Of a DNA stretch of 56,052 bases, positions 38,115 to 55,364 are shown one piece after another. A program made the translations under genes and the position numbers. Source of the stretch: a virus. Its lineage: Duplodnaviria > Caudoviricetes. The stretch spans positions 1 through 56,052 of the IMG/VR virus record IMGVR_UViG_3300005764_000021. One strand, 5' to 3'. Numbering within the stretch: the first letter of the stretch is position 1; every line of letters begins with the position of its first letter. The notes under the pieces are model-generated. The model did not search any database and was not told where the DNA came from. It was given only the letters and a program-made list of their open reading frames with translations.

Positions 38115-39529
38115 CAGTTCGTTTCTTCGTTGAACTGCTGGAACAGGCTGCGCAGTTCGAGCGCGGGCCCGTGCGTGCCGTCGGACATGACCGGAGTTGC
38201 GGTGTAGTGGACGCGGTCGAGCTTCCAGCTCCTCAACGTCGGAGCCGGTGCACCTGGCTTGCCGTCACTACCGGCCGGGCCTGGCGGCCCGCGTTCGCCC
38301 TTGGGACCAGCGATGCCACGCCCGCCCTGGCGGGCAATCATTTTCCAGCCATCGCCCGGCAGTGCTCCCGGATTATCGCGTCGCGCAATGAATGCCGCCC
38401 CGTCGGACACGACAATATCAAGTGCACGATAGTTTTCTTTGGCATCGTAAGTATCGCGGACCGTAGGCGAGACCGCATCTCGTCCGGCGGCAGCGACGCA
38501 AATCCAGTCGAATGTCGCGCCGGGGACCGAACCGGTGTCCTTGAGTGCTTGATAGGTGTTGTTGCCATGGACGACGATCTCGCCTTCATACGTCACATCA
38601 TCTTGCGTCCATCGTTTTACCTTCGGCAGCTTGCCGGGCGCACCCTCGGCACCGCGCGCGCCGGTCTCGCCGCAAGCGCCGTTCACACCAGGCAGCCCGG
38701 GTAACCCTTGCGGACCCGTCGGGCCCGCTTCGCCTTTGTCACCTTTTTCGCCTTGCGGCCCTTTGAGGCCTTGCGCGCCTTCTTGGCCCGGGATGCCGGG
38801 GACTCCTTGTTCTCCGACATCTCCCTTTTCGCCTTTCTCACCGCGCTCACCTTGCTCACCACGCTCACCGACAAAGCCCGGCGGTCCCGGTGGCCCGATT
38901 TCGCCTCGGAGTCCTTGCGGACCTGCGGGACCGGCGTCGCCTTTCTCGCCGGGCATGCCAACGCCATCGGCTCCGCGAATGCCGGGGAATCCGACATCAC
39001 CTTGAGGGCCAATCGGCCCTTGCATTCCTTGCTCGCCGCGTGGGCCGGGCGGGCCCGCTTCACCACGCTCGCCGCGTAGCCCGGACGCACCAACCGCACC
39101 GACCAGGCCGCGCGGGCCTGCAGGACCTTGCGGCCCCGGCAGACCTTGCGGGCCTCGCGGCCCGTCGTCGCCGTCGACGCCGTTAATTCCATCGGCACCG
39201 CGTTCACCGTCACGCCCTGGCGGCCCTACGGATCCACGTTCGCCATCACGCACCAGCGCCAGGCGCTCGGCCACCGCGCGCGCGACCTCGGCGGGCAGAT
39301 TGACGGCCTCGCCGCGCATCTGCACCAAGATCGATTGCGCCCGCGCTTCGATCTGCGCCAGGAATGACTGTACCCGCGCTTCCATCTGCGCGTGCTCGCG
39401 CGTCCAAATCCGCTGCTGCTCGGCGAGCGCCAGCGCTAACGCGTGATCCCAAATTTCAGGATAGGTGCCGCCGATTGATTCGGGCGGCGTTGTCGAAGAG
39501 CCGTTGTGCTGCGCGTCTGACATCGTCAT
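38114..39529 (-). CDS. collagen-like head/neck fibre protein
   Basis: ~200 aa of Gly-X-Y repeats followed by two small aromatic repeats (YEGEIVVHGNNTYQA; YRALDIVVSDGAAFIA). Confidence 0.85.
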   Translation of the reverse strand: MTMSDAQHNGSSTTPPESIGGTYPEIWDHALALALAEQQRIWTREHAQMEARVQSFLAQIEARAQSILVQMRGEAVNLPAEVARAVAERLALVRDGERGSVGPPGRDGERGADGINGVDGDDGPRGPQGLPGPQGPAGPRGLVGAVGASGLRGERGEAGPPGPRGEQGMQGPIGPQGDVGFPGIRGADGVGMPGEKGDAGPAGPQGLRGEIGPPGPPGFVGERGEQGERGEKGEKGDVGEQGVPGIPGQEGAQGLKGPQGEKGDKGEAGPTGPQGLPGLPGVNGACGETGARGAEGAPGKLPKVKRWTQDDVTYEGEIVVHGNNTYQALKDTGSVPGATFDWICVAAAGRDAVSPTVRDTYDAKENYRALDIVVSDGAAFIARRDNPGALPGDGWKMIARQGGRGIAGPKGERGPPGPAGSDGKPGAPAPTLRSWKLDRVHYTATPVMSDGTHGPALELRSLFQQFNEETN

Positions 39530-40889
39530 CTAGTGCTTTCGGAGTTGGTGGCAGCGTTGCTGCCGGAATTCCCGGCGCTGGTGGTCCCGCCGGTGGCCCA
39601 GCCGGATGTTGTCCCGGCAACGCAGGCATTTTGGCCGCGAATGACAATGGAATTTGTTGCTGTTGCATACGTGGCTCGCTGCCTGCGATCACATCATCAA
39701 GACCTTCTTTGTTGCGTGCTTCGTTAGGCGAGAGAATTCCGCCGGTCACCGCTTCCTTGAGTCCACGGATGCGATCCTTGAAATCTGATCGCAGCAGCGC
39801 AGCGGTGTCGAATTCGATGAACTCGTCCGGTTGGCCCTTCAGACCGAGCAGCCGTTCAAAAGCTTGTTCGCAATGATTGAGACAAAAACCGAGTCCAGTG
39901 GCCAGCCAGAACGTCATAAGCGCTTCGGTCGAACCAGCACTGCCGCCGAGCCCGAGCACCGCGAGCGGTATGCGGAACACCAGCGCGATATGCCCTTCTG
40001 CGACTTTCATGATTTCCGCAATCTGTGCATCACGCGGCGGCGATGCCCACGGATTGACTTTGAGCCCATGTGTGAGGATGGGGGTCTTTCCCTGATTGAT
40101 CCCGCGTGACTGCTCGTCCCATCTGTCGCGCAGCGCCGTCACCGTCGCCAGATCGAGCTGCAGGTCGGTCGAGATCACCGCCGAGGGCCGCGCCTGGTTC
40201 TGATAGAACTGCTGCTGCTGCGAATTGATGGAATCGCTCAAAACGATGTCGCTCATGGCCGCGAGCAGCGGCGATTGTCCCCACAACGGGAACGGATTTT
40301 GGCGGCTGCGGTCGGCATGCAAGCGGATGTGCAAGACATCGCGTTGCGGCACCAGGAGCGGTTCTGCGTTAGTCTCGCGCTCGATCACGCTATTGCCGAA
40401 GAGCCGATAAAAAACTTCACCGTTGACAGCGAGCTGCGGCGCGCACAGCCGCGAGTCCATCAGGTGCAGCTCCGAGACCTCGAAGCGAGAGTTGCGCAGC
40501 GCGAGCGCATAAGCATTGCCGTCCAAATATAATTGTCGGACGGCGTTGAGCATAAAGTCCGACGCGGTCTGATACGCGTTCGGCTTGCGCAGGATCCGCG
40601 AGGCTGCGCTGTTGGTGACGCGAGTATTGCCGCCCTTGTCGTTGAGCCGCCACTGATCGCCTTGGCACATGGCGACGGTCTGCGCGTATGCGCTGACACA
40701 CGCTTCGACCATCGCCGAGCGTGCGGGCGATGGAATGACGTTATAACCGAGCTGCCAAAAATTCGTCGGCGAGCCATCGGGCAACCAACCACCCGAAAGT
40801 GGCAGATAATATGGGCCGCTGCGATATCCTCCCTCGACGGCTTTTGCCGCCCAGCGCAGTCCGCCAGCTACAAGCGAGCGCGCTCCCAT
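39456..40889 (-). CDS. portal protein, HK97 family
   Basis: KPNAYQTASDF, LDGNAY, VLHIR, GQSPL, FRIP, LSPNEARNKEGL. Confidence 0.95.
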   Translation of the reverse strand: MGARSLVAGGLRWAAKAVEGGYRSGPYYLPLSGGWLPDGSPTNFWQLGYNVIPSPARSAMVEACVSAYAQTVAMCQGDQWRLNDKGGNTRVTNSAASRILRKPNAYQTASDFMLNAVRQLYLDGNAYALALRNSRFEVSELHLMDSRLCAPQLAVNGEVFYRLFGNSVIERETNAEPLLVPQRDVLHIRLHADRSRQNPFPLWGQSPLLAAMSDIVLSDSINSQQQQFYQNQARPSAVISTDLQLDLATVTALRDRWDEQSRGINQGKTPILTHGLKVNPWASPPRDAQIAEIMKVAEGHIALVFRIPLAVLGLGGSAGSTEALMTFWLATGLGFCLNHCEQAFERLLGLKGQPDEFIEFDTAALLRSDFKDRIRGLKEAVTGGILSPNEARNKEGLDDVIAGSEPRMQQQQIPLSFAAKMPALPGQHPAGPPAGPPAPGIPAATLPPTPKALDDDVRRAAQRLFDNAARINRRHLS

Positions 40890-41450: not shown

Positions 41451-43853
41451 TTAGGACCAGGTTACGTTCTGGGTCCACGCAACCGTGCCCGCGCGCCGTT
41501 GAATCCAATTCAAAGGCATCACCATCCTTAAGGCGATACTATCTGTTTGGAATAGCGACCTTTGGGGAGCTGCGACCGTGCTTGGAGACGCCACCAATTC
41601 AAGTGGGGTCGTATCTTCCATGTGGAGAGTCGCCTGGTCCGAAGTTTCTAGCCTCGGAGCCCCGCCGCCAACTACGACAAAGTCCGCGGCGTCGACGAGG
41701 ATCATTGTCTTCGCTGGCACCGTTGCCGAGTCGATTACCGGCACCGTATTGAGTGTTCCGCCGCGAATCTCCTCGCGGAACGGGAAGATGCCGGTGTTGG
41801 TCGCCTGCGTCAACGTCACTGCGAGGATGTCCGACGGGTTCATCAGGAACACCGGCGAACGCAGATTGCCGTAGGTACTCACCGTGAGCGCACCGATGAG
41901 CGCCTTGATGTCGCCGATCAAGGCCGCCATGCCGCCGCCCGCCGTCGCCGTTGTCACGGTGACGCCGTTGAGCAGCCCGGCGGGCCGAACCGCCGTCGCC
42001 GCGTTCGCGTCGATCAGCACGCTGTCGACTGCAACGCTGGTGTCTTGCTGGATCGCCTCGCGAATCAATCCCTCGATTGCAGGGATGGAATGATCCGCCA
42101 TCTCACGGGTCCACACGCTGATGACCGCGAGTTTCTTTGGCACGACCGTCTGCGAGGTGAACGCACCTTGCCGCACGGGAATCGCGAGACCTTCGCCGAC
42201 GAACGAGCCTGCGATGGTTGGCGTGCGTGAGCGGGTCGGAATGATGATGCGTCCGGTGTTACCGAAGTTCAGCGTCATTCCTTTTGCTGAGAGTCGCGTG
42301 AGGATCGCGGCGGGCATTAAAAGCGGCATCAGATCGGCGTAATCTGTCTGCACCAGCTCCTGGGCCCAGCCCGCGACTGTCGTGATCGCGGGTGCCGAGG
42401 CCGCACGCAGAATCAGCTCGCACGAGATTTTGGTCTCGTCGTCGCCGTACTGCGGACGTTGCTCCGCGATCTTGAGCCGGGTCTCCTCCAGCGATTTACC
42501 CCACTGCTTGGCGAAGTGTGCGACCGCGCCAGCCCGCACGAGGTAATCGACGTAATCGACCTGATCACGGCGACTCTTCTTGGCCGTTGCGAAGATCGGA
42601 GCGGCTTTCGCGGGCTCCGGCGGCGGCGGCGGCGTGAACACGGTCATCGCGCGGCTCGCCGCGTGCCCGTTGCCGCCATTCACAGACTTGGCCAACAGCC
42701 GCTCCGACTCCGTCAACGCATTGAGCTGCTTCTCGAGCCCGGCGATGGTGGTGTTGAGGTCTGTGGCCTTCTGCATCTGGTCATCGCTGATGTTGGTTTG
42801 ATCAACCGACTCCCAGTGCTCTTCGAGTGCGTCCTTGTTCTCGTTCAGGAGAGCTTGGACGGCAGTGATACGTTCGGAAAGCGGCGTCATGACGCGGCTC
42901 CCATTCTTACGAGACGTTTTGGCATGCTTGCCAGTGAGCCCACGCCGCTCGACCTGGTCTCTATTGCCATGCTTGGCGAAAACCAGGTCCATTGTCGCAG
43001 GACTAATGCCCAGCGATTTGGAAACCGCCAGCGCATTTGCGTTAGCCGGGATTGAAACCAGCGAGGTTTCGACCAGCTCGGCTTTAAGGTATTTGCGACC
43101 GCTGAACGGATTCTTCTTGTCCAGCGGTTCGCTTTCGATATCGCGGAAGCCGACCGAGACGGCCTTTAAGATACCTGCCTCGATTAGCTTTCGAATTTCA
43201 TCGATACGGTTTGAGGTGCCCTCCGGTGCCATTATCAGCTTGCCGCGCAAAGCCCCTTTATCGACCTTTAATCCATCCCATCTGCCGATCGGAAACGAAG
43301 GATTATGATTAAACAATGCGACCGGATTTTTCCTGAACGAGGCGATATCCCAGCCATCGGCCTTGATGATGTCACCCATCCGGTCGATGCTTTCATCCGA
43401 TAGCACGAAGTCCATTCCTTGCACGGTCTCGGCGTGAGTTTTTTGAATAACGCGATGCATGCCGGACGCTCGTTCCTGCGAATCCTCCCATGCCATGCGG
43501 CACAGGTTCTCGGCGCGGTCGGGGTCATCTTCCATACCCCATTCGTCGGCGAGTTCGTCAGTGCATCGGTCCATGAAATCGCTCTCGGATTCGCCCTCTT
43601 CGGGGTCCGGCACGTCGCGATCAACTTGATCGTCATCTTGCTTTGCCGTCACGCGTGGCGCGCTCGCGCCGAGGTCGGCATCGGCGCTCTTCGGTGCGGA
43701 GCCGCCGTGGGCTTCGCGCCAGGCGTTGAAGCACATCGCGACGGCTTGCTCTTGTGTGCGATCTTCCGGCGCGCCTGTGCCGTAGGCCTCGTGCATGCAG
43801 CGAGCCATGAACGCGTCTTGCTTTTCGTCCTTGCGTGGTTTGGGTAACGGCAT
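41451..43853 (-). CDS. prohead protease-major capsid protein fusion (HK97 fold)
   Basis: DRMGD...LFNHN...PIGRW...VSVGF...ETSLVSIPAN protease motifs; coiled-coil scaffold; FVGEG...PKKLA...SLFQTD capsid motifs. Confidence 0.95.
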   Translation of the reverse strand: MPLPKPRKDEKQDAFMARCMHEAYGTGAPEDRTQEQAVAMCFNAWREAHGGSAPKSADADLGASAPRVTAKQDDDQVDRDVPDPEEGESESDFMDRCTDELADEWGMEDDPDRAENLCRMAWEDSQERASGMHRVIQKTHAETVQGMDFVLSDESIDRMGDIIKADGWDIASFRKNPVALFNHNPSFPIGRWDGLKVDKGALRGKLIMAPEGTSNRIDEIRKLIEAGILKAVSVGFRDIESEPLDKKNPFSGRKYLKAELVETSLVSIPANANALAVSKSLGISPATMDLVFAKHGNRDQVERRGLTGKHAKTSRKNGSRVMTPLSERITAVQALLNENKDALEEHWESVDQTNISDDQMQKATDLNTTIAGLEKQLNALTESERLLAKSVNGGNGHAASRAMTVFTPPPPPEPAKAAPIFATAKKSRRDQVDYVDYLVRAGAVAHFAKQWGKSLEETRLKIAEQRPQYGDDETKISCELILRAASAPAITTVAGWAQELVQTDYADLMPLLMPAAILTRLSAKGMTLNFGNTGRIIIPTRSRTPTIAGSFVGEGLAIPVRQGAFTSQTVVPKKLAVISVWTREMADHSIPAIEGLIREAIQQDTSVAVDSVLIDANAATAVRPAGLLNGVTVTTATAGGGMAALIGDIKALIGALTVSTYGNLRSPVFLMNPSDILAVTLTQATNTGIFPFREEIRGGTLNTVPVIDSATVPAKTMILVDAADFVVVGGGAPRLETSDQATLHMEDTTPLELVASPSTVAAPQRSLFQTDSIALRMVMPLNWIQRRAGTVAWTQNVTWS

Positions 43854-43912: not shown

Positions 43913-44083
43913 TTACTTCGACGGCGGTTCTGGTTTTTTGACCAGCTCGGGGAACGCCTTGGCGACGCCCTCGATCATCCGATCCATTTCTTCCCTGGTC
44001 ATGCGGTCGGGCTCGTCGGGGTCTTCGAGCCACGGCACTGATGCCGACGGGATCGGCGGCTTAGGCGGCTTGCGGGACGGCAT
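43913..44083 (-). CDS. small hypothetical protein (56 aa)
   Basis: GAGG SD then ATG 44083, overlapping the end of the upstream gene. Confidence 0.5.
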   Translation of the reverse strand: MPSRKPPKPPIPSASVPWLEDPDEPDRMTREEMDRMIEGVAKAFPELVKKPEPPSK

Positions 44084-46076
44084 GCTCGGCCTCGTATTTC
44101 GCCATCGACTTCTCGTAGTCGGTCGCCACATCCTTGGAGCGACCGCCCATGTATTTGTACAGCACCTTCTCCGGGTTCCACCAGGTGGCCTGCGCCGCCG
44201 CTGGTTCTAGCTTGATGCCCTGCGCCGCCAGCTTGCCGAGCGCCATGTTGAACACGCGAGTGATGTATTCGCGTTGTTCGGCCCCGCGCGGAGCCTCGAC
44301 CATCTTGCCGCCGTAGCTGTCGACGAAGCGCTCGGCGGCATAGACCAGCTCGCTCTTGCTGCGCGCGCCGGATTTGTATTCGGCCTGATGCTCGGCGTAG
44401 TTTTTCTCGTGCTCGTCGTAGACCTCGTTGGCGATCTTGTTGAGCGCTTCCATGCTAGCCGGTGCTCGACGGCCTTCCTCTTTGAGCGCGTTGCGCAGCC
44501 GGTCGGCGATTGGCTCCATGTCAGGCTGACCGACGCCGGTGTTGGTCATGCGGCCCCAGGCGCGCATGAACCAGATGTCCATCGTCAGCGGCTTAAAGTT
44601 GCCGTTGAGGTTCTGATAGAAGCCGAGACCGATCTTCGGGCCGAGCACGGCCGAGCCGTTGACGACATCGTCCATCGATGTTCTGCCGACCTTGTAGCCG
44701 GTGATCTGCTTCAGCTCGCGCACGGTCATCTCCTTGTTGAAGAATGTGCGCGTGCCGTCGAGACCGAACTTGGCCACAAATTTGTTGAGCTTTTCCATGT
44801 TGCCGTTGATGCCGGAATTCTTGACCTTCATGTCGGTGGGGAATTGTCCCGTCCGGCTGAAATGGCTGTAGGCCTCCTCGGCCAGGCGCACGTTGCTGTC
44901 GACGACTTCGCCCTGACTGGTGACCGCCAGCGCCGCGATGTAGGCGAAGTGCTTGTCCGGGTCGCGCGCGATCTCGGGGTGCATGCGCTCGGCGATCTTC
45001 ATCGCCGCTTTCATCTTGTCCGAGTACCAGGTCGGGGAGCTGTGACCGTTGTTCAGTCCGGCCTTGAGATCGGCAGCGATAGCGTCGGCCAGATAGTTGT
45101 CGGTCTCGGGCGTCGACTCTTCGAGCGAGGATTTGCCGAAGCGCTCTTGCAGCACTTTGCCAGCGCGGTCGTTGAGCTGCTGCGCGACGTCGTGGACGGC
45201 AATCGAGTTCGGCTTGGCCGCCGTCGTGCCGATCATGATGCTGTCGGCGGTGAGCGGGTGGGGCCGCGCTAGCTCTTCGCCCCACCGATTATGAATCCGG
45301 TCCCAGGTTGCTTGACTTCCTTGAACCGGGGATTGGCGGATAATTTGCTCATAAGCTCGTCGCGCGTCGTCGCGCTGCTCGCGGTCGCTGCCGGTGTCTT
45401 GCTGGGTGCCGATGAATTCCGCGCGTCCGTGCGTGTATTCAACGGTGGCTGTCCCGGAGGCTTTGGCAACTGCGTCATGGAGCTTTCCATCGAGGTCTGC
45501 GACGTAGACGGTCGCGCCCTTCTCATGGGGAACCAGGGTGTGGAATGCAAGCCCGTCGGCCAGCAAACCCTCGTGGATTTTTTGGATATCGCCGGGGGCC
45601 TCGAACTTGTAGAGCACCGCCGGGCCCGCAGCTTCGCCGCGAAACAGCAGCACTTGCTTCTGGTCGCCGAGGTGGCCCTTCATGGCCCCGGCCAGGCGTA
45701 GCTGGTCCCAGCTCGCACCCTTGGCGACCGACATTACCGAATTCTCTGCACCGTCCTTCCAGGCCCCGATGATGTCGTGGTCCTCGGCCTGGATCCCGAG
45801 TGTGCGGTCGATCTCGCCCGAGGCCTGCTTGAGCGCGCCCTGCCGCTCGCTGCCGAGCGCCTGGTGCGCGAGGTTCAATCCGAGCGTCGCGGTGTTGGGC
45901 GAGACAAACTCGATGCCCTCCTCGTGTGCTCCCGGCCGCGAGCCCTCGAACCTGCCGGTGGTCGGGTCCTGGATGTAGTCGACGTCGCGCTTCTCGTGCC
46001 ACGCCTTGTCCCCTGCGGGATGCCAGTCGAATTTATCGTCATCGCCCCAATGAAAGCGCTCGGCCCGGAATGTCAT
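44061..46076 (-). CDS. two-domain protein; C-terminal HhH-GPD/DNA-glycosylase-like domain
   Basis: WY...LAVTSQ...N...GPKIG...FYQN...TMDIWFMR...QATWW; N-terminal DPTTGRF leader. Confidence 0.7.
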   Translation of the reverse strand: MTFRAERFHWGDDDKFDWHPAGDKAWHEKRDVDYIQDPTTGRFEGSRPGAHEEGIEFVSPNTATLGLNLAHQALGSERQGALKQASGEIDRTLGIQAEDHDIIGAWKDGAENSVMSVAKGASWDQLRLAGAMKGHLGDQKQVLLFRGEAAGPAVLYKFEAPGDIQKIHEGLLADGLAFHTLVPHEKGATVYVADLDGKLHDAVAKASGTATVEYTHGRAEFIGTQQDTGSDREQRDDARRAYEQIIRQSPVQGSQATWDRIHNRWGEELARPHPLTADSIMIGTTAAKPNSIAVHDVAQQLNDRAGKVLQERFGKSSLEESTPETDNYLADAIAADLKAGLNNGHSSPTWYSDKMKAAMKIAERMHPEIARDPDKHFAYIAALAVTSQGEVVDSNVRLAEEAYSHFSRTGQFPTDMKVKNSGINGNMEKLNKFVAKFGLDGTRTFFNKEMTVRELKQITGYKVGRTSMDDVVNGSAVLGPKIGLGFYQNLNGNFKPLTMDIWFMRAWGRMTNTGVGQPDMEPIADRLRNALKEEGRRAPASMEALNKIANEVYDEHEKNYAEHQAEYKSGARSKSELVYAAERFVDSYGGKMVEAPRGAEQREYITRVFNMALGKLAAQGIKLEPAAAQATWWNPEKVLYKYMGGRSKDVATDYEKSMAKYEAEHAVPQAA

Positions 46077-48952
46077 GCAACCAGCCTTGCAACAAAGCGC
46101 TCCGTGTTGGGCGCTTCGCGCGGTTCATGGCTAACGATCTCTAGCCGGGAGTTGCGCGGAAACAATATCTCCGCTTCCTCGGGGAAATTCGAAAGCGAGC
46201 CAACTGGAAACGCCGGACTGCCTTTCGGTACTTGGATTTCGATGTAGCTCCCCGGCTTATCGATCTTCGACTTGTCGAGCGTCGTGCTCATGAAGGCCGG
46301 ATCACTGAATGAGCCCGCATGATCCAGAATATCCTGCGTCCGCTGCCAGCCCACCGTTCGATAGACCGTCACATCGTGCGGTAGCTTGTGGGCGCTCACC
46401 AGCTCATCAAGATTCTCGGTCTCGGCTGACACGGGACCGGAGCCAAGTCGCGCGGGCGCGTTGAACAGGTCGCTGCTCAGCGTATACATATCGAGCGCCT
46501 GCTTCTGTTCGAGCGGAATATCGCTCACCCCCATTTCATCGCGCAGCGCATCCACCTCGCGGGTCGATGCCGTCACGTTGCGGTCTTCACCGCCAAGCGC
46601 CATCGAGCCCAAGTCATCGCCGCCGTCGCCAGCCGTCCACTTTCCAGCTTCATCGCGCGGTTGGTCGGGATCGAACTTTGCGTACCAACTTTTTTTCTTC
46701 GGAGTCTTTTTTTTGAGCGGCGTCACACCGTCAATGGTCTGACCAAGCCACGGATTGGCACGATCCATGTCGAAGAGCCGACTGATCAAGGCCAACGTCG
46801 ATTTGCTGTTTGGCTTGTCGTCGAGTGCCTTGGCTGCCTCTGCTTGCGTCCGCTGCTCCTCCAAAAACATGTTCGCCTGCCGCAACGCGAACTGCCCCTC
46901 GCCGACGGCAACGCCGACACGACCGATTGCGCCGTCGCGCATGTCACCGACGGCGTAAACACCGGGAAGCGGTGTCTCCAGGTTTTTATTGGTTTGGATT
47001 CTGCCGCCCTTGGCGACCGTCACATCCGCAGGGACCCACTTAGTGTCCGGCATGCTGCCGATGAATTCGCCCAGCGCTTTGATCTGCAAAACTTTACCGC
47101 CGACGGTTTCCATGCTTACTGGATTGCCGCGCGCGTCACGATTGAGTTGCTTGATGCTGTCGCTTTCAATCACCGTGATCTTTGGATTGTTGCGCAACGC
47201 CTCAACCTGATAATCGCTCATGCTCTCCACGATGGGTGAGCGCGCCAGCAGGTAGACATGATCGCAGTGCTGCGCACATCCGAGTGCCGCTTGAGCTGCG
47301 CCATTCGAGCCGCCAATCACGCAGACCCTGCCGCCTGCGCCTGCCTTCGCCAACGCCTTGCCATCTCCGATAATCACGCCCGGTCCCTCTGAGCCGGGGA
47401 AGCTCATGCGGCGAAATTCAACACCACCGGCCAAAATGACCGTGCGACTGTCGATATGCTCACCATTGGACAGCGTGAGATGCTTCAGTCCGGTCTTTGG
47501 ATCATAGGTCATCCCCGTGACCCGGATGCCGAGCTTGGCCTCTGCTCCCAAGCGCTGCGCTTGCTCATACATGTTCTGAGTCAACCGTTCGCCGGTTACT
47601 CCAACCGGGAAGCCAGGGAAGTTCTCAATGCGAGAAGAAAACTTGGCTTGCCCGCCAGCGACCGCAGTGGCCTCGACGACCAGCGTATCGAGGCCTTCCG
47701 CTGCGCCATTGATGCTGGCGGCCAATCCACCGGGGCCAGCGCCGATAATGGTCACATCGCGCGGACCACCCGGTAAACCAATTCCACCGGGCCCACCGGG
47801 ATCGGCGTGCAGACCGTGCATCTCCTTAACGATAGCTTCCAACTGATCTACCAGTGCCTGCGACTCGGGGCCGTCTGGCTTGTCCACATGCGCCAGCAAT
47901 TGGTTGTTGATCTTTGCCCACTCGCTCTTGAGCGCTTTGAATTTCTCAACATCGCCCGGCACCAAACCATAATTGCCAGCCTCGCCGCCGCCAGCGCCGC
48001 CGTCGCTGGCGAACTGCCCACCTTCCGGCGATCCAGCAGGTTCGCGCGGATGCTGCGACTCGTCCCACGCGCGCAACAGCTCCAGCAGCATCTTGCCGAA
48101 CGCGGTTTCGCTCGCGGGCTTCTTGCCCTTGCCGCCGGTGAAGATTTCGGCTTCTTCGAGCAGCTTGGTGATCGAGATGTTAACTCTAGCGATCTTGATC
48201 TTGGTGTCGTTGGTCAAGTTGCCGTCGGCGGCATCGAGCCCGAGCTTGCCCGCCCAGTGATGGTGACCGTCGAGGATGTAGTCGTCCTTGGAAATGATCA
48301 GCCGCTTGGCACCCTGGTTGTCGGGCTCTTTCTCCAGGTGGGCCATCACTGCCGCGACCTTGGCACCGTTCAACTCGTTCTGGGTCGCGCGCAGGTTGGC
48401 GGCAAATTCCCTTTCCTTTTTGATTTCGTAACCCTTCCGCTCCAAGTATTTGCGGAACTCTTTGGTCTGCTCATCAGTCAGTTGCGGCATCTGCGCGCGC
48501 GGGATGCCTTTGGTCTCGGCGCAGAACAGGTTGGTGCCCGCCACGCTCACATCGCAGAGATTGAACACCGGCGCTTGCTGTCCTTGCTTCTGCCAGCGCT
48601 GGGCTTCCTCACCCAGCTTCTTGATCAGCGTCGAGACTTGTTTCGGCTGCGTCAGCTCGACCTTGCGGCCTTCGTACAGTGCGCGCTGCGCGTCAGCGAC
48701 CTTCGAGGTGTGGATGACGCCGTGCGCATCGACATAGGCGTCCTTGCTGTAGCCCTCGCCGGGATGCTCGCGCTCAGCATCTCCTCCACCGCCGCCGCCA
48801 TCACTCGTGAACTGTCCGCCTTCCGAGGATCCTGCGGGTTCGCGCGGGTGAGCCGATTCGTCCCAGGCGCGCAGCAGCAGCTCGAAGCTCGGCAGCGGTG
48901 CCGAGAGATCGCGCCAGACCTCGGCGGTCATATCCGCAAATAAGCCAGCCAC
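46073..48952 (-). CDS. polyvalent protein: ParB/Srx-like + thioredoxin-reductase-like flavoprotein + ADP-ribosyltransferase
   Basis: ISKDDYILDGHHHWA; IIGAGPGG...GGQA...IENFPGFP...GVYAVGD; VYR...FMSTT...EAEILFPR (R-S-E triad). Confidence 0.85.
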   Translation of the reverse strand: MAGLFADMTAEVWRDLSAPLPSFELLLRAWDESAHPREPAGSSEGGQFTSDGGGGGGDAEREHPGEGYSKDAYVDAHGVIHTSKVADAQRALYEGRKVELTQPKQVSTLIKKLGEEAQRWQKQGQQAPVFNLCDVSVAGTNLFCAETKGIPRAQMPQLTDEQTKEFRKYLERKGYEIKKEREFAANLRATQNELNGAKVAAVMAHLEKEPDNQGAKRLIISKDDYILDGHHHWAGKLGLDAADGNLTNDTKIKIARVNISITKLLEEAEIFTGGKGKKPASETAFGKMLLELLRAWDESQHPREPAGSPEGGQFASDGGAGGGEAGNYGLVPGDVEKFKALKSEWAKINNQLLAHVDKPDGPESQALVDQLEAIVKEMHGLHADPGGPGGIGLPGGPRDVTIIGAGPGGLAASINGAAEGLDTLVVEATAVAGGQAKFSSRIENFPGFPVGVTGERLTQNMYEQAQRLGAEAKLGIRVTGMTYDPKTGLKHLTLSNGEHIDSRTVILAGGVEFRRMSFPGSEGPGVIIGDGKALAKAGAGGRVCVIGGSNGAAQAALGCAQHCDHVYLLARSPIVESMSDYQVEALRNNPKITVIESDSIKQLNRDARGNPVSMETVGGKVLQIKALGEFIGSMPDTKWVPADVTVAKGGRIQTNKNLETPLPGVYAVGDMRDGAIGRVGVAVGEGQFALRQANMFLEEQRTQAEAAKALDDKPNSKSTLALISRLFDMDRANPWLGQTIDGVTPLKKKTPKKKSWYAKFDPDQPRDEAGKWTAGDGGDDLGSMALGGEDRNVTASTREVDALRDEMGVSDIPLEQKQALDMYTLSSDLFNAPARLGSGPVSAETENLDELVSAHKLPHDVTVYRTVGWQRTQDILDHAGSFSDPAFMSTTLDKSKIDKPGSYIEIQVPKGSPAFPVGSLSNFPEEAEILFPRNSRLEIVSHEPREAPNTERFVARLVA

Positions 48953-49500
48953 GAATCCTCAATCGCGGTGATGGGCCAACCCTGACTGCTTAACCGGTCG
49001 AGTACTTCCGAGACTTGGACCGCCGGGTTGTTGTAATCGTGCCAGACGATGACACCACCCGGACGGATAAGCGCACGGGATAGAAAGCTGTCGTGTTCAA
49101 CAGCCGCCCGCGAATGATCGCCATCAATGAAGCAGCAATCGCAGGGTTCGACGTCTTGTGGCCCCACGGCGAGCGAGCCGCGTTCGCGGACAAGAAGCCA
49201 GAATCGTGGATCAGGAGCGGCGTAGACACCGGCCGTTCGAGGGACTTCGCTGCGCTGACAAGCGAGGGTTGGCTCATGGCCGGGCGGGATATCGATGCCG
49301 ATATATCTTTCGATTCCCGGTATCTCTCTCAAGATTATCGACGCGGTGCGACCTTCATTCACACCAAATTCGATCACCACCTTCGGCCGGACGCTGCGCA
49401 CCAATGTGACCAGCAGTCCGGTTTCGACGTCGTTGAGATACAAATTGTGAAACGGCCGGATGCGCGCGACTTCGATGCTATCGCGAGGAACCGTCAGCAC
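48928..49500 (-). CDS. class I SAM-dependent methyltransferase (Methyltransf_24-like)
   Basis: VIEFGVNEGRT, FIDGDHS, GGVIVWHDY. Confidence 0.9.
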   Translation of the reverse strand: MLTVPRDSIEVARIRPFHNLYLNDVETGLLVTLVRSVRPKVVIEFGVNEGRTASIILREIPGIERYIGIDIPPGHEPTLACQRSEVPRTAGVYAAPDPRFWLLVRERGSLAVGPQDVEPCDCCFIDGDHSRAAVEHDSFLSRALIRPGGVIVWHDYNNPAVQVSEVLDRLSSQGWPITAIEDSWLAYLRI

Positions 49501-49681
49501 GTGCTAAGCTCTTTGATGTCCCCGTGGTTCAGGGCGAAAACCGTGTAGGTCGATATCCGGGAGGCAAGCCCCGGATGAACTTGCCCGACCGGCTAAGCGA
49601 ACGCCTCTCGCGATCAGCGCCAGTATCGCTTAGGCATCCAGTGTTGGTTTCTCAGTCTATGGCTGAGATGCGTGAGCGAGA

Positions 49682-50908
49682 TCACGGGGACACTTGAGCT
49701 AGCGCGCTCGCCCAATCGCCGGGCGATGTCTGTTTGCACAGCGTGACATTCTCGTACCACTTCTTGCGCCAGCGCCATGAGTGCCAGTGCGAGAGCAAGA
49801 GCTTGACGTTGGGATGTCCGATTGCGCCCGCCAGGTGCACGGCCGCCGTGTCCACCGATATGATCTCGTCCAAGCACAACATTAGTGCGGCGCAGTCGCC
49901 GAAGTTCTCGAACCCGAACGTGCGGGTGCGTCCCGTTCGAGCGCTCGGACGTGGCAACTGCGCCTGCACGCTGTAAATCTCGGCCTCGGGATCGAGATGT
50001 GCGAGCAGCTCCTCGACGTCGATCTCGCGCGGATAGTCGCCGATGCTCGGCTTGCCGATGCTCCACGCGATGCCGATGCGCTTGCGCGAGCTCGAGCTCG
50101 AGCCCAGCCGCTCGCGCCATTCGGCAACGCGCTCGGGATCGACGTCGAGATAGGGACCTGACAAGCACGCATCGGGCGAGACGTACAAGCGGCCGAGGAG
50201 ATGCAGCAGCGGACAGAAATAATCGACGGGCTCGCCGGACGGCATGTAGTCGTCGAGCAGCCCGTCCAGCTCGCGCGGCAGATCGAGCGACACGATTGCG
50301 CCCATGGCTTCGAGCATCGGGACGTAACGCAGGCACATGATGCTGTCGCCAAAGCCGTGCGCGTGCAGCAGCAGGATGCGCTTGCCGTTGATGTTCTCGC
50401 CGCGCCAGGGCCGCATGCCCGCATCGAGCGCAGCGCGGACCTGTGGCCTCATGAATGGCGCGAAGTCCTCGCACTTCTCGTACTGCTCGAAGCCCGTGCG
50501 CCAATCCCCCGCCGCCAGCAGCAGCATCGCGCGATTGAAGCGCGCGCGCAGCGTCGGCGCGATGGCTATGGCTGCATTCGCGGCCTGCAGCGCGGCCTCG
50601 ATCTGGTTCTCGCGGTAGAGCGCGACGACGCGGTTGAACTGCAAAAGGTAGTCGTCGATGTCGATTGATGGATCGTTGGTCAGCTTGCGCTGACCAATCG
50701 CTTTGCCGTTGAGCGCGACGATGATATTGCCCTCGGGCAGCGTGGCCTTGTGGCCGTTCTTGCTGCGGACCTCCAATATTTCGCCGTCCAGCGTCAGCCC
50801 GCGCCAACCATAGTCGGTGGTTTCGTGCCTGATCACCGGATCGAGCTGCGGCGGCTCGCCGAAGTCCGCGAAGATGGTCTGAGGCCGATCTGTTCGTGAT
50901 TCATTCAT
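49682..50908 (-). CDS. TPR-containing glycosyltransferase (GT-B, family 9-like)
   Basis: TPR-like helices; WRGE...HGFGDSIMCLRY; IGIAWS; LDEIISVDTAAVHLAGAIG; WRW...WY. Confidence 0.85.
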   Translation of the reverse strand: MNESRTDRPQTIFADFGEPPQLDPVIRHETTDYGWRGLTLDGEILEVRSKNGHKATLPEGNIIVALNGKAIGQRKLTNDPSIDIDDYLLQFNRVVALYRENQIEAALQAANAAIAIAPTLRARFNRAMLLLAAGDWRTGFEQYEKCEDFAPFMRPQVRAALDAGMRPWRGENINGKRILLLHAHGFGDSIMCLRYVPMLEAMGAIVSLDLPRELDGLLDDYMPSGEPVDYFCPLLHLLGRLYVSPDACLSGPYLDVDPERVAEWRERLGSSSSSRKRIGIAWSIGKPSIGDYPREIDVEELLAHLDPEAEIYSVQAQLPRPSARTGRTRTFGFENFGDCAALMLCLDEIISVDTAAVHLAGAIGHPNVKLLLSHWHSWRWRKKWYENVTLCKQTSPGDWASALAQVSP

Positions 50909-51016
50909 CGTTTGTTGCCGGTGTTTTTGTGCAACGTCGTTTGGTCAGATCAAACGACCCTCCACGCTAGAGATACTCGCCTGGTCGCTCACTTCCACGT
51001 AAGATTACGATCTTGC

Positions 51017-51122
51017 GGCTGGGCGTGGCGCGGCTGGGCTTGGCACGGTCCGGTAGGGCTGGGCAAGGCTGGGCAGGGCAAGGCAGGGGGAAAGCGCCGT
51101 TCACAGCGGCGCTTTCCATTTA
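51017..51122. repeat. GGYNN pentamer array 5 (14 units) + hairpin
   Basis: Array 51017-51086; stem GGAAAGCGCCG-TTCACAG-CGGCGCTTTCC 51089-51117, 2 nt from the capsid-paralogue stop codon. Confidence 0.95.
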
Positions 51123-52208
51123 TTTCCAGGCTGGCGTTAACCAAGCGATTCCCGCTGCGTTTCTCAAGCTCCAAGACATCGGCCATTTGGTCTTGATGGC
51201 AATGGTTTCCGTTTGGAACAAGCTCTTGTGGGTGCCGGTGCTGCCGGGGTCGGCGACCGGCGCAGTGTCCATGTGCAGCGTGCCAGCATTCGCGGCCTCG
51301 ACTTCGAGATCGGGCGACAGCGCCGCCACCAGCGCGGCGTGGGCAATCGCGATGATGTCGCCGCCGACGGCGCTCGATGCGTAGATGTGATAGGGCGCAT
51401 CAGCCTCGTGGTAGATGCGGCCGATGAAGGTCGCGGCCCGGCCGGGCGACATCACCAGGCAGTAGGGCCCAGCGCCGCCGACCGCCGCCACCGCATTGAT
51501 CAGGTTCACCAAGTCCTCGAACGCCGCCGCGAAAGAGTCGGCATTGTTGGATGCCGTCAGCGCGGCAATGCCGCTGCGCAGGCCTGCGGGCTGCGCCGCA
51601 GTCGCGGCGGCCGTACCGAACAGCGCCGCGTCGAGCGCGTAGCCGCACGAGCGCACCAACGCGTCGCCGATGATCTGCTCGGCGTTGCCGCTCTCGATCA
51701 TCTCGCGCGAGAGCACCGAGATCGCCGCCAGCTTGTAGGGCAGCATCTGCACCGCCGCCGAGGCGAGCTGCCGCACCGGAATCGGGCCGCCTTCGGCAAC
51801 GAAGCTCGCGGAGCTGGCCCCGGCCACGATGCCAGGCGCGCTGATGACGCCGTTGCCGTCCCAGGCCAGCACCAGGCTTTCGCGCAGCACCTGTGCGCCG
51901 GCGCTCACGGGCCCCATTGCCGCCAGCGCCTGCACCACGACCGTGCGCACCAACTCCTTGGCCCAGCCGGTCACGCTGGTCATGGCGGGCGCGGACGCCG
52001 CGCGGTTGACGATCTGGTCATGCGGCCAGCGTTCCTGCGCGATCAGATGGGCGCGCGTGTGCTGCAGGCTCGCAATCGCCTTCGCCGTCACCAGCCGGAT
52101 GAAGGCGTTGCCGTCGTCGGGAAGCGGCGGGGTCTTGCGAAACGATTGCACTTGCACGTTGCCATAGCGCTCGCGTGGCACTCGTTCCGACCAGTCGGTG
52201 ATCGTCAT
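51120..52208 (-). CDS. major-capsid paralogue 2 (HK97 fold, no protease domain)
   Basis: Start moved to ATG 52208 (CAGGAG SD); RAASAPA...GWAKELV, FVAEGGPIPVRQ, KLAAIS, SLFQTE align with the MCP. Confidence 0.9.
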   Translation of the reverse strand: MTITDWSERVPRERYGNVQVQSFRKTPPLPDDGNAFIRLVTAKAIASLQHTRAHLIAQERWPHDQIVNRAASAPAMTSVTGWAKELVRTVVVQALAAMGPVSAGAQVLRESLVLAWDGNGVISAPGIVAGASSASFVAEGGPIPVRQLASAAVQMLPYKLAAISVLSREMIESGNAEQIIGDALVRSCGYALDAALFGTAAATAAQPAGLRSGIAALTASNNADSFAAAFEDLVNLINAVAAVGGAGPYCLVMSPGRAATFIGRIYHEADAPYHIYASSAVGGDIIAIAHAALVAALSPDLEVEAANAGTLHMDTAPVADPGSTGTHKSLFQTETIAIKTKWPMSWSLRNAAGIAWLTPAWK

Positions 52209-52222
52209 CGTTGTTGCTCCTG

Positions 52223-52276
52223 AAAAAAGAAGGCGGCGACCCTTTCTGGCAGGGGGGCAATCAGCGAGCCGCCGCC
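52223..52276 (-). terminator. putative intrinsic terminator/attenuator upstream of capsid paralogue 2
   Basis: On -: GGCGGCGGCTC...GGGTCGCCGCC stem with a long loop, then TTCTTTTTT running into the next SD. Confidence 0.6.
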
Positions 52277-52295
52277 GCGCGGGGTAAAACACCCG

Positions 52296-52715
52296 CTAGA
52301 AGCTTCCACCGTCAAATGTTGCATCCCAGGCCGCAGTGTTGCGGCCGTAGGTCGTGCCGTCTTGCGGCGCTTCGGGAATGCCGCCGGTGCCACCGCCGCC
52401 GCCATAGGGACGCATCATGATGGCGCGGCGTGATTGCTGCTGATGCATATCGACGACGACCAGCCCGAAGCCGTCGACGCCGTAGCCATTGAGATCGCCC
52501 TCCAGCACGCCCGGCGGTTGGCCGGTCGCATAATCGATGACGCGATATTCGATGACGCTGCCGGTTTGTATCAGCGAGGCGCGGCGTTGAGCTTGCGCCG
52601 TCATGTCGACATCAACCAATTGCCAGCCCTGCGCGCCGTACTGATTGTAGAGCGCTTCTAGCTCGGCGGCGGCCTTGCCGGTCGCATAGTCAAACACGCG
52701 ATTGACAACGCTCAT
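52296..52715 (-). CDS. tandem DUF4177-like repeat protein with foldon-like C-terminus
   Basis: Two RVxDYATG...LE...N.YG..G..LV.VDM...RRA repeats; GIPEAPQDGTTYGRNTAAW. Confidence 0.75.
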   Translation of the reverse strand: MSVVNRVFDYATGKAAAELEALYNQYGAQGWQLVDVDMTAQAQRRASLIQTGSVIEYRVIDYATGQPPGVLEGDLNGYGVDGFGLVVVDMHQQQSRRAIMMRPYGGGGGTGGIPEAPQDGTTYGRNTAAWDATFDGGSF

Positions 52716-52716
52716 C

Positions 52717-53760
52717 TCACCAATTCGTCGTCGTCATCCAGCCCACGCCGCTGGCCGAGCGCACGCCCCAGGCCACCGGCAGTTTGACCATGATGCCGAT
52801 ACAGTCAGTCTGCCAGATCGATTTCGTGGGCGGGCTGCCGTCCGGGGCCGTGTCCATCTGCACCGCAGCCTCGCGGCTGGTCGCCATGATCGTCGGCGTG
52901 TCGCCGAGCACCGAAGCAATATTGTTGGGCGCGACCGCAATCATGATCATCGTGCCGCGCAACGCCAGCGAGCCGAGAAAGCTCAGCGGGCGCACGCCAT
53001 GCTGGCTGCGCAGATCCGCCAACAGCGCGCGGGTCGTACTGCCGATGAAGATCGGCTGCGTCGAACTCACCGGCGCGACCACGCGATGCAAGGTCTCGAT
53101 GTCGGTCATCAGCGCCGCCACCGGATCAGGCGCGGTGCTGGCCGTCGATGCCGCCACGCCATAACGCAAGCCCGCCGGTCGAGCTGCGCTGCCCGCAACA
53201 TCGTCAAACAACGCAGTGTCGAGCGCAAGCGCGGCCGAGCGCACGAGCGCATCCAGCATCAGCGCTTCGATGTTGGAGGACTGCACCATCTCCCGCGTCA
53301 AGATCACGATCACCGCAAGCTTCTTCGGCACCAGCGTGATCAGCGGCTCGACGTGACCCTGCTGGATCGGAATTGAATCGCTTTCCTTGACGAAGAAGGC
53401 ATAGGCCGAATCGCCGAGCAGCGTCGGCACCGAGATTTGCCCGGCATGATCGAAGTTGAGCTGCAGGCCTTCGCGGAATAATTTCGCCGCCGCCGATTGC
53501 GGGGCCAGCGCCGCAAGAAAGTCCGGCATGACCGTCCGCAGCAGCGCCGGTGTCCCCGCCATGTCCGTCGGTGCCGTCGGTGAGCGCAGCAGCCACGGCA
53601 GGCTGGCGTCGTTGCTCCACATCCTGCGCGCCACCTTCTCAGGTGAAGCGCGATCATAAGCGCCGACAGCAGCAGCAACGCACGCACGCGTTAAGCTCAC
53701 CACTGAGGGCCGCTGCGACGGCTGCGATGTCATCGGAATGAGAGCCGGTGCTGTAATCAT
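52717..53760 (-). CDS. major-capsid paralogue 1 (HK97 fold, no protease domain)
   Basis: FVKESDSIP, PKKLAVIVILTREM, RPAGL, SIWQTD...W align with the MCP; ATGA overlap with terL. Confidence 0.85.
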   Translation of the reverse strand: MITAPALIPMTSQPSQRPSVVSLTRACVAAAVGAYDRASPEKVARRMWSNDASLPWLLRSPTAPTDMAGTPALLRTVMPDFLAALAPQSAAAKLFREGLQLNFDHAGQISVPTLLGDSAYAFFVKESDSIPIQQGHVEPLITLVPKKLAVIVILTREMVQSSNIEALMLDALVRSAALALDTALFDDVAGSAARPAGLRYGVAASTASTAPDPVAALMTDIETLHRVVAPVSSTQPIFIGSTTRALLADLRSQHGVRPLSFLGSLALRGTMIMIAVAPNNIASVLGDTPTIMATSREAAVQMDTAPDGSPPTKSIWQTDCIGIMVKLPVAWGVRSASGVGWMTTTNW

Positions 53761-55364
53761 CCAATCAACGCCCTAACATCCACGAGCGGCTCGGCTTTGA
53801 TCAACGCCAGCGAAAAACTCATCGCCAGCGCAACAACGCCGTCAATCCGCCCGCTGCTCTTCGCCTTGTCGAGCTTGCGCCCGCCAGCACTGTCCTTGCT
53901 GATCACTGCGCAGCCCGCGTTCCAGCTCAGCACCGGATGATTGCCGTGGCGGATTCGCTTCTGCACAATCATGCGCTCTAAAACATCTACGGCAGGACTC
54001 ATCTCCTTGTAGCCTTGTCCGTGTTCCGCGAGCACAACGCTGCAACTTATCTCGTTCAGCTCGCGCTTCAGATCGCCGATGCGCCAGCGGTCAAACGCAA
54101 GCGCCTCGATGCGATAGCGCCCGTGCAGCTCCGCGATCTTCCTCGCAATCACAGCAGGGTCAGTCGCGTCGCCGATGGGCGTGATCAGTCCATCACGCAC
54201 CCAAACGTCATACGGCACGCGATCCTCGTTGGTGCGCGCATTAGGATCGCCAGGCAACCAGAACCACGGGTAGACGTGAAAGACCTGCTCGGCGTCCTGG
54301 TGAATTAGAACGAGCGCACTCAGGTCCCGCGTGTAGCCAAGATCGAGCGCCGCATAGCAGCGCGCACCGTCAGGAATGTGCGGCTTGCCACCACACGCCA
54401 TCCACGATGACGGCTCGATGAAACGAGCCTCCGCCGCGACCCGCTGGTTCAGGATCAGATTTCGGAACGCGTTCTCCAACGAGGGCATGCGCTTCGCCTG
54501 GCTCGCCTGCCGCTTCACATCAGCCAAGCTGCGGAAGTCGTCGAGCGCGGGGTTAGCTTTCTTCCAGGTCGAGCGCTTGAACGGATCGTCAGTCAGCGGC
54601 GCAGTGTGCAACGTCAAATGAAAAGTCTCGTCCTTGATCTCGCCTCGCTGCACACGCAAGCCGTAGTCGATCAAAACCGACAGCGGCGCAAAATCATCGG
54701 CCGCCTGCGTGGAGATGACAATCATCAGCGGCTCTTTGCGCGCGCCCATCGCGCTGTCCATCGCATCGTAGAGCTGCCGATCAGGCGCTTGCCCCAGCTC
54801 GTCGAAGATTACCATAGATGGATTGAGGCCCATCTTTGTCTTGGCCTCTCGACTCAGCGCCATGTAGATCGATTCATTTTCGAGGTCGACTATCTCTTTT
54901 CGGTTGAACAAAACATTGCAGCGCGCGTTCAGATACTCGTGCCGCTTCACCAGCGCGCACATCTCGTGAAAAATCTTGGAGGCCTGCGCACGATCATTCG
55001 CACAAGAATAAATCTCGCCGCGTGGCTCCGCTTCGGGCCCGCACAAGTGACACAGCGCAAGCGCCGCCGCGAGCTGCGTCTTGCCGTTCTTGCGCCCTAA
55101 ACTCAAAACCGCCGTCCGCACAGGACGTCGCCCATCCTCAATCGTCCTATAAGTCTCGTCGATAAATCGACGCTGAAACTTGCGTAACTTCAGCTTAGTC
55201 CCCACCAACTCGCCTGAACTGATCGTCAACTCCTCGCAGAAGCGAATGACCCGCTCAGATCGCGTGAGACCTGGCTCATCCCACGAAAATATCGTGGTCT
55301 CATACCTGCGAAGAACAGCCTGCCTGTCCCGCAGTTTGAAAACCTGCCACCCTTCGAGCGCCAC
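53757..55364 (-). CDS. terL: terminase large subunit (HK97-like)
   Basis: Walker A GRKNGKT, Walker B IFDE, ISTQA, KANP, ALDL, FDRW, IDGVVALAM. Confidence 0.97.
   Translation of the reverse strand: MALEGWQVFKLRDRQAVLRRYETTIFSWDEPGLTRSERVIRFCEELTISSGELVGTKLKLRKFQRRFIDETYRTIEDGRRPVRTAVLSLGRKNGKTQLAAALALCHLCGPEAEPRGEIYSCANDRAQASKIFHEMCALVKRHEYLNARCNVLFNRKEIVDLENESIYMALSREAKTKMGLNPSMVIFDELGQAPDRQLYDAMDSAMGARKEPLMIVISTQAADDFAPLSVLIDYGLRVQRGEIKDETFHLTLHTAPLTDDPFKRSTWKKANPALDDFRSLADVKRQASQAKRMPSLENAFRNLILNQRVAAEARFIEPSSWMACGGKPHIPDGARCYAALDLGYTRDLSALVLIHQDAEQVFHVYPWFWLPGDPNARTNEDRVPYDVWVRDGLITPIGDATDPAVIARKIAELHGRYRIEALAFDRWRIGDLKRELNEISCSVVLAEHGQGYKEMSPAVDVLERMIVQKRIRHGNHPVLSWNAGCAVISKDSAGGRKLDKAKSSGRIDGVVALAMSFSLALIKAEPLVDVRALIG

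Follow-up and report, generated by a model that had tools for sequence, protein, structure and literature searches.

Short HK97-fold capsid paralogues as candidate vertex proteins in a lineage of contractile-tailed alphaproteobacterial phages

T4 and, as shown in 2026, c2-like phages already provide examples of a paralogue of the major capsid protein (MCP) that serves as a vertex protein. Here, we analyze IMG/VR viral record IMGVR_UViG_3300005764_000021, a linear soil metagenome contig of 56,052 bp (the window; CheckV completeness estimate 77%) that encodes a fusion of prohead protease, scaffold, and capsid protein (F) together with two short capsid paralogues, MCP-A (A) and MCP-B (B), which we consider as candidate vertex proteins. 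In T4, the major capsid protein gp23 forms the hexamers and its HK97-fold paralogue gp24 forms the pentamers at the vertices; T4 differs from our locus in having a separate protease and scaffold core and in the insertion domain of gp23. To our knowledge, dedicated vertex proteins in HK97-fold phages were for a long time recognized only in T4-like phages. In the Lactococcus phage Nocturne116 (2026), ORF18 combines protease, scaffold, and MCP, is cleaved between Arg242 and Ser243, and forms 50 hexamers, and the adjacent ORF19, an HK97-fold homologue of 24% identity without protease or scaffold, forms 11 pentamers (PMC13595954). Gene pairs of this type are also present in c2, GE1, and Q54, and the published account compares them with gp23 and gp24 of T4 (PMC13595954). 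A preliminary description of the window had assumed that HK97-like phages use one MCP, a view that Nocturne116 puts out of date.

Our locus resembles that of Nocturne116: in both, the main MCP comes from the C-terminal part of a fusion with protease and scaffold, the head module also contains a gene for a separate HK97-fold paralogue that lacks these two parts, and the A-domain region of this paralogue is shorter. The two also differ in several ways. Nocturne116, a small prolate siphovirus, infects Firmicutes, whereas the window phage is of a contractile-tailed alphaproteobacterial type. In the vertex protein (VP) of Nocturne116 (220 aa), the E-loop is reduced, the tip loop of the A-domain is shortened, and the N-arm is nearly gone, whereas the window paralogues have 347 to 362 aa with a full E-loop and N-arm. 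Finally, the VP gene of Nocturne116 directly follows the MCP gene, whereas the window paralogues are two in number, lie upstream of the fusion, and are tied to a glycosyltransferase (GT) and to a small protein, p139. A tblastn search of A and B against a collection of 50,697 phage records, in which the presence of c2-like phages was not verified, gave no match at E ≤ 1e-5. Because of this lack of a sequence match, an origin independent of the Nocturne116 VP is likely, and A and B appear to be analogous to the c2-like VPs and to gp24 rather than members of either family by descent.

Two further systems bear on how such paralogues could act. SaPIbov5 encodes Ccm, a satellite-borne MCP homologue that derails capsid assembly of phage phi12 (PMC8569155), and thus provides a case in which a capsid homologue without assembly machinery of its own enters the shell of another protein; Ccm acts against its helper, whereas the window paralogues are phage encoded and belong to a conserved head module. 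In two-component Family 2B encapsulins, two HK97-fold paralogues can share one shell (PMC11071501), but these are cellular nanocompartments with cargo, whereas the window genes share a viral head operon with those for terminase, portal, and protease. The papers on Stx2 phage Sp5 and on P1 DarA/Hdf proved unrelated to HK97 paralogues and were set aside.

Homology and conservation of the short paralogues

We found three HK97-fold capsid homologues in the window (F, A, and B, all on the minus strand) by profile matches, BLASTP, and a structural model of B, in agreement with the preliminary description, which had also recognized two intact paralogues of about 350 aa without a protease. F matched Pfam Phage_capsid (E 1.2e-12, residues 538–736), Peptidase_S78 (E 2.1e-10, residues 159–274), and phrog_617 (E 3.8e-82, residues 138–799), passed the curated thresholds of both PF05065 and TIGR01554, and is preceded by a strong GGAGG ribosome site. 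BLASTP aligned A with F at 33% identity (332 columns, E 3e-29), B with F at 32% (347 columns, E 1e-32), and A with B at 36% (329 columns, E 2e-41). On F, these alignments covered residues ~454/477–799 and were limited to the C-terminal ~370 residues. A and B themselves matched 0 Pfam and 0 NCBIfam families, but both matched the MCP families phrog_617 and phrog_10; in phrog_617 the match was to the capsid half (A, E 6.4e-13, profile 300–626 of 626; B, E 2.1e-15), and a precomputed PF05065 label is carried by a minority of their homologues. Database searches gave 57 homologues of A, mostly 50 to 73% identical, and 298 of B, the best 120 of which include a Bradyrhizobium protein. The start of B is most likely the ATG at 52208, giving 362 aa, because a GGAG lies 8 nt upstream of it and homologues are 350 to 370 aa long; homologues span 85 to 93% of the 390-aa listed open reading frame (ORF; 51120–52292).

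The preliminary description had placed the onset of homology at the R-A/S junction of F. The alignments instead extend ~40 to 50 residues farther upstream, with B ~60–97 aligned to F ~433–483. Within an alignment of 20 fusions, a conserved block, KKELDPLDYLVRA...YGDDE...LRAASAPAMTTV, starts ~55 residues upstream of the same junction and aligns with this part of B. B is thus the counterpart of about the C-terminal 370 residues of F. Cleavage between the R and AAS of this junction would parallel the Arg242 and Ser243 site described for Nocturne116, but the junction was not adopted as the maturation site of F because the conservation of F extends ~55 residues further upstream.

An AlphaFold2 model of B, built from a 36-row alignment (predicted local distance difference test, pLDDT, 76), has the HK97 fold, and the part of B that aligns with the block upstream of the junction forms confident helices (63–100). 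Foldseek matched the model at a probability of 1.00 to phage capsids (8gta, D3, HK97, and GTA) and to encapsulins; 8gta was the top PDB match (E 3.6e-12), and at E ≤ 0.001 there were 232 matches in the PDB and 213 in BFVD. Profile searches of solved structures gave 0 matches with B and, with F, only 8gta (E 1.7e-05, partial) and the Bxb1 MCP, too few matches for placing the F-specific insert on a solved capsomer. By tblastn against the phage collection, F found only fusions of 27% identity in enterobacterial prophages; among the matches listed, each record had a single such place, apart from one record with two prophages. Encapsulin identity was rejected for A and B, which have no encapsulin Pfam match and whose neighbors are terminase, the protease–MCP fusion, and portal. 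A Ccm-like satellite origin was rejected as well, since the genes for terminase, fusion MCP, portal, adaptor, sheath, baseplate, and endolysin all occupy a single strand of the window.

To place the window among its relatives, profile searches were run from B, A, and F. The B profile found at least 571 relatives among at least 599 pattern matches in viral contigs and nine loci in genomes, including prophages of Bradyrhizobium stylosanthis and Bradyrhizobium sp. and a Xanthobacteraceae metagenome-assembled genome (MAG); four of the nine are distant single-MCP Rhizobium/alphaproteobacterial loci and served as outgroups. The best 80 viral loci share the order TerL-[HNH]-[MT]-B-GT-[MT]-[optional inserts]-F-portal-collagen-like-adaptor-sheath, where TerL is the large terminase, HNH an HNH endonuclease, and MT a methyltransferase. 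Pooling gave 160 loci (numbered with the prefix L), of which 118 remained after removal of overlaps. A short paralogue is present in 106 of the 118 (B only in 92, A only in 10, and both in four). The fusion is also visible in 74 of these 106, and another 30 end less than 9 kb downstream. Only two have at least 9 kb without it: L020, which has a long insert, and L110, which has the order MT-GT-A-portal and whose relative L109 carries F upstream of its GT-A-portal order. None of the 118 nonoverlapping loci clearly carries a short paralogue in the absence of a fusion. The next recognizable gene after B is GT in 86 of 96 cases and F in six.

The search from F returned 12 loci, 11 of them new. In seven loci, 3.5 kb or more of sequence precedes F, and B lies upstream of F in five of these. 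The sixth (L100) begins inside the GT gene, which would put B beyond the contig end, and the seventh (L105) carries a short paralogue, C, downstream of F. C (L105 13361–14536) has 391 aa and is 37% identical to the F capsid domain, and a C-like gene (L118 2430–3302) adjoins an A-type gene elsewhere; short paralogues may have arisen more than once in the lineage. B is a core gene of the lineage at a fixed site in the head module. A literature search found no paper on the lineage or on two capsid paralogues in Bradyrhizobium phages. The window belongs to a very large lineage, the third after those of T4 and the c2-like phages and independent of them, that comprises at least 571 viral contigs along with Bradyrhizobium prophages and pairs a fusion MCP with a scaffold-less paralogue. 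What is new in comparison with T4 and the c2-like phages is this third lineage, its natural two-paralogue variants, and the tight association with a TPR-glycosyltransferase, a methyltransferase, and a fibre-like partner. Its members differ naturally in whether they have one or two short paralogues, the fibre-like partner, and an adjacent GT, and culturable lysogens exist.

We asked whether the gene order could be an assembly product. Contigs from other soil samples that match the window without differences bridge the junctions of GT with B (X4, 50811–51588), of B, p139, and A (X3, 51830–52763), and of A with TerL (X3, 53432–54069; X4, 53639–54086), and the same gene linkages recur in relatives (L004, L005, L090, L113, and others). 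Short joints, for example from 41695 to 51923 with 20 to 21 letters per side, look like cross-matches of paralogous or foreign contigs and were not used.

A tree of 60 rows (IQ-TREE, quick) was computed from 18 of the 38 loci with both B and F, five A loci, 13 of the 21 A-family database proteins, F and C of L105, and the four outgroups. It supports an F clade (95), a B clade (99), a core A clade (99), and a grouping of A with B (98). The A and B group joins F and C at 97 against the Rhizobium-type single MCPs, although the outgroup does not form a single clade and long branches occur in three rows, which makes the deepest order unsure. On the choice between duplication and capture, the tree points to an old duplication inside the lineage rather than to recent capture from an unrelated phage, because A and B are nearest to each other and next nearest to the fusion of their own lineage.

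All three capsid genes are under purifying selection. The ratio of nonsynonymous to synonymous divergence (dN/dS, NG86) was 0.05 to 0.49 for B (8 of 11 pairs defined), 0.27 to 0.58 for A (5 of 5), and 0.05 to 0.19 for the F capsid domain (10 of 11); most dS values exceed 1 (saturation) and ORF starts were uncurated, so these ratios are rough and only their direction, below 1, is safe. The mean p-distance was 0.44 for B, 0.30 for the F capsid domain, 0.49 for GT, and 0.52 for TerL. Pairwise distances of B and of the F capsid domain correlated over 28 loci (Spearman 0.54, with non-independent pairs), the highest value of the gene pairs tried, with 0.42 between the two halves of F; this correlation is no more than a weak hint. 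The B and F trees are concordant for L032/L044 and L048/L098.

A proposed vertex role and its alternatives

We judge the chances to be about even that B would act as a dedicated vertex protein and co-assemble with hexamers of F, A being a second, fibre-associated variant. In this model, the head would be built chiefly from F, the capsid protein fused to its own protease and scaffold, and the paralogues without protease or scaffold would enter the same shell as specialized capsomers, most likely as pentamers at the 11 non-portal vertices. B would be the standard vertex protein of the lineage, and A a second version that came in a cassette of two genes together with p139, a small protein whose tail is of the trimer type. 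Capsomers of A may bear a fibre because p139 is extended into fibre-like proteins in relatives. Presence in the virion, formation of pentamers, and any contact between A and p139 are elements of the model that we infer. The preliminary description had offered four options, namely dedicated penton or minor capsomers, alternative capsid sizes, decoys against capsid-sensing defence, and interference with competing elements. Comparative evidence favors the first: B has core status and a fixed site in the head operon, selection is purifying, the duplication is old and internal to the lineage, and the design is the same as in Nocturne116.

We compared B with F by domain. Identity between the B and F consensus sequences is 0.45 to 0.60 in the E-loop and P-domain and 0.17 in the A-domain. 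In B, the A-domain is 17 alignment columns shorter and the P loop 7 shorter, the E-loop differs by 1, and the N-arm is kept. The E-loop and P-domain make contacts between capsomers, and the A-domain makes contacts around the capsomer axis. The distribution of divergence therefore fits a vertex role, although it is suggestive only.

Several observations weigh against this model. A-domains are the least conserved part of MCPs generally, with a within-family conservation of 0.62 for B and 0.76 for F. B retains a full-length E-loop and N-arm, unlike the VP described for Nocturne116. A pure penton role leaves the two short paralogues of some genomes unexplained. B and F of the window are ~7 kb apart, separated by five genes. 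Two pairs of loci, L026/L084 and L053/L077, group as sisters in F but not in B, and B has therefore been exchanged among relatives. A search for RNA runs that contain window positions 44000–53900 listed none. The HK97 fold of A would follow from its 36% identity to B, and the selection estimates have the saturation noted above.

The best-surviving alternative, which we nonetheless consider unlikely, is that A and B are equivalent versions of a single vertex or minor-capsid function, that double carriers are recombination intermediates or simply tolerate redundancy, and that the third gene adds no role. Consistent with equivalence, A can occupy the usual site of B (A-p139-GT in L005; GT-A-portal with no B seen in L109 and L110), the site of the A cassette varies (A-p139-B, B-A-p139, or B-GT-A-p139), and loci with A only (10) or B only (92) far outnumber the four with both among the 106. 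However, both genes are intact in all four nonoverlapping double carriers, the dN/dS of A is below 1, and A is coupled to p139 in 10 of 14 cases and B never, which suggests a distinct property of A. Moreover, the A-only loci mostly lack upstream sequence, so that B may lie off the contig.

Somewhat less probable, in our estimate, is that the short paralogues, instead of being dedicated pentons, enter the shell at hexameric or other positions or build an alternative shell that differs in size or shape, much as two-component encapsulins form shells of variable composition. HK97-fold paralogues can co-assemble with irregular tiling (PMC11071501), B retains the F-like E-loop and N-arm in full, and encapsulins score about as high as phage capsids against the B model in Foldseek. 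Against such mixing, the context is a phage head operon, there is no cargo-type neighbor or encapsulin Pfam match, and in the solved phage cases of an MCP paralogue that we consulted (T4 and Nocturne116) the paralogue forms the pentamers.

We also think it improbable that the short paralogues lie outside the virion and serve as decoys against capsid-sensing defence or as dominant-negative subunits against competing phages, a role conceivable mainly for A. The satellite protein Ccm is an MCP homologue that redirects capsid assembly of its helper (PMC8569155), A is an accessory mobile cassette with a terminator-like element and thus has a moron-like look, and B has diverged more rapidly than the capsid domain of F (mean p-distance 0.44 versus 0.30). 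However, Ccm-type genes belong to satellites and not to complete phages, and B is less divergent than either TerL (0.52) or GT (0.49). B is also a core gene on the late-gene strand at a fixed site between TerL and F, present in every adequately long relative, and a decoy or interfering role is unlikely for B because it belongs to the core of the structural module. No match to defence-related families turned up, and none was specifically sought.

Very improbable is the last alternative, an artefact of a chimeric contig or redundant captured capsid genes heading for loss, for although the window is a metagenomic contig that CheckV rates as 77% complete, independent samples bridge every junction and relatives share the linkages, which largely rules out chimerism, and decay is excluded by conserved synteny, by dN/dS below 1, and by the presence of short paralogues in 106 of 118 loci, the lone clearly fragmented copy (L011) lying in a module that is frame-broken throughout, as expected from assembly errors.

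Returning to the vertex model, we can extend it in a direction that we regard as improbable: A and its translationally coupled partner p139 would together make up a vertex capsomer with a fibre, phages carrying A as well as B would have two kinds of vertex, and the TPR-glycosyltransferase and methyltransferase, which follow the short paralogue in most relatives, would glycosylate the exposed vertex protein. A penton combined with a trimeric fibre is the arrangement of adenovirus and PRD1; here it would be built on an HK97-fold capsid. More generally, closure of the five-fold corners may require a scaffold-less paralogue when the capsid protein is made as a fusion with protease and scaffold. 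The occurrence of this design in a third lineage suggests a recurrent solution to quasi-equivalence, one that may be linked to such fusions.

The A cassette and p139

A-type genes are uncommon: of the 80 loci that the A profile search returned, ~17 are at least 50% identical to A, and the remainder are B-type. A relative of p139 follows A in 10 of 14 nonoverlapping cases and never follows B; in the window, p139 starts 2 nt past the stop codon of A. The cassette occurs at several places: TerL-A-p139-B in the window and L090, B-A-p139-GT in L024/L111 and L113/L114, B-GT-A-p139 in L108, and A-p139-GT in L005, L112, and L115.

The preliminary description had identified a foldon-bearing repeat protein between A and B. 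We recovered the two repeats and the tail of p139; for the foldon itself, there is a precomputed Fibritin_C (PF07921) label on just one of eight homologues, five of which carry a DUF4177 (PF13783) label. p139 scored 17.4 bits against Pfam DUF4177, below the 25-bit cutoff. The model of p139 has two beta-alpha-beta-beta units (pLDDT 68–93). The tail, IPEAPxDGxxYGRxxxxW...DGGSF, is conserved, is disordered in the monomer model, and is presumably comparable to the foldon of T4. A fold search of p139 in the PDB gave no match at E ≤ 0.001, and BLASTP found no significant similarity between p139 and the collagen-like protein of the head module.

In several relatives, the N-terminal repeats of the p139 type head proteins of 350 to 650 aa with extra beta-rich domains, EAPxDGxxYGR motifs, and fibre-type repeats. 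From its sequence, the p139 family thus looks like an anchor domain joined to a trimeric fibre. The long relatives are encoded at L090 6438–8081, L111 3183–5126, L112 961–2025, L115 952–2010, and L117 1440–2585, and a beta-rich domain conserved among them contains …WVPYTGPPQSF…DGDWTMVANK….

A terminator-like separator had been proposed between p139 and B. A stem at 52232–52276 followed by UUCUUUUUU at 52223–52231 does lie there, but its folding energy is ordinary (z −1.28). The hairpin past B (51089–51117) has a folding z of −5.49, yet no U-run on the coding strand. After this hairpin, the 210-nt spacer between B and GT (50909–51088) contains imperfect GCCCAGCC/GCCTTGCC repeats; the spacer is just 10 to 50 nt in most relatives.

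The surrounding head module

Nearly all long genes of the window lie on the minus strand and make up a single structural module of a contractile-tailed phage. Their order is HNH endonuclease, TerL, A, p139, B, TPR/GT9-like GT, methyltransferase, a 959-aa protein, an unknown 671-aa protein, F, portal, collagen-like protein, adaptor, sheath, baseplate, and endolysin. The stop codon of TerL and the start codon of A overlap (ATGA).

Table 1. Coordinates of the capsid genes and neighboring features in the window
Feature	Position	Strand	Description
TerL	53757..55364	minus	Large terminase; Pfam TerL_ATPase and TerL_nuclease; phrog_9, E 5.7e-124
A (MCP-A)	52717..53760	minus	Short HK97-type capsid paralogue, 347 aa, without protease or scaffold; accessory, in few relatives
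p139	52296..52715	minus	139 aa; two DUF4177-like beta-alpha-beta-beta repeats, Gly-rich linker, foldon-like tail
Stem-loop with U-run	52223..52276	minus	Terminator-like, between p139 and B
B (MCP-B)	51120..52208 (listed ORF to 52292)	minus	Short HK97-fold capsid paralogue, 362 aa; core lineage gene
Hairpin	51089..51117	minus	Stable, 11 bp, immediately past the stop codon of B
GT	49682..50908	minus	TPR and GT9-like glycosyltransferase
MT	48928..49500	minus	Methyltransf_24 gene, sugar O-methyltransferase-like; usually adjoins GT
F	41451..43853	minus	800 aa; N-terminal Cys-repeat region, S78 prohead protease, scaffold, HK97 capsid
Portal	39456..40889	minus	Portal protein; the head module then runs on to collagen-like protein, adaptor, sheath, and baseplate

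The presence of a GT and a methyltransferase in the head module suggests glycosylation of a virion protein, possibly of the short paralogue. Both genes are missing from two Bradyrhizobium prophages, L007 of Bradyrhizobium stylosanthis BR 446 and L010 of Bradyrhizobium sp. DASA03120.

F carries an extension ahead of its protease (residues 1–130; 43464–43853) that consists of two similar modules, each with two conserved cysteines. These cysteines (C19/C41 and C97/C118 in the window F) are invariant or nearly so across the 20 fusions, and the ~130-aa extension gave no family match.

The optional inserts between GT/MT and F in relatives are homologous to the 959-aa and 671-aa proteins of the window. 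The 959-aa multidomain protein (46073–48952) combines a ParB-like N terminus (phrog_2859), a pyridine nucleotide-disulphide oxidoreductase, and a C-terminal ADP-ribosyltransferase and has two copies of the motif LLRAWDES.HPREPAGS.EGGQF; its parts exist as separate genes at the equivalent site in relatives. We take it to resemble a head-packaged “polyvalent” protein.

In the MAG locus L011, which is labeled Chloroflexia, the head module is present with each gene split across several frames, probably through assembly or sequencing error in the MAG. The Chloroflexia label clashes with the alphaproteobacterial hosts of the other loci.

In some relatives (L004 81–2702; L025 4982–7600), ~1 kb of extra sequence interrupts the TerL gene at a point equivalent to residues 95 to 109. 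In L004, TerL and its insert form a single ORF of 873 aa, and the insert may be an intein or an inserted endonuclease. Finally, the collagen-like (Gly-X-Y) protein of ~410 to 470 aa (38114–39529 in the window) is conserved between portal and head–tail adaptor in relatives, an odd site for a protein of the tail-fibre type, and it may thus be a head or neck fibre.

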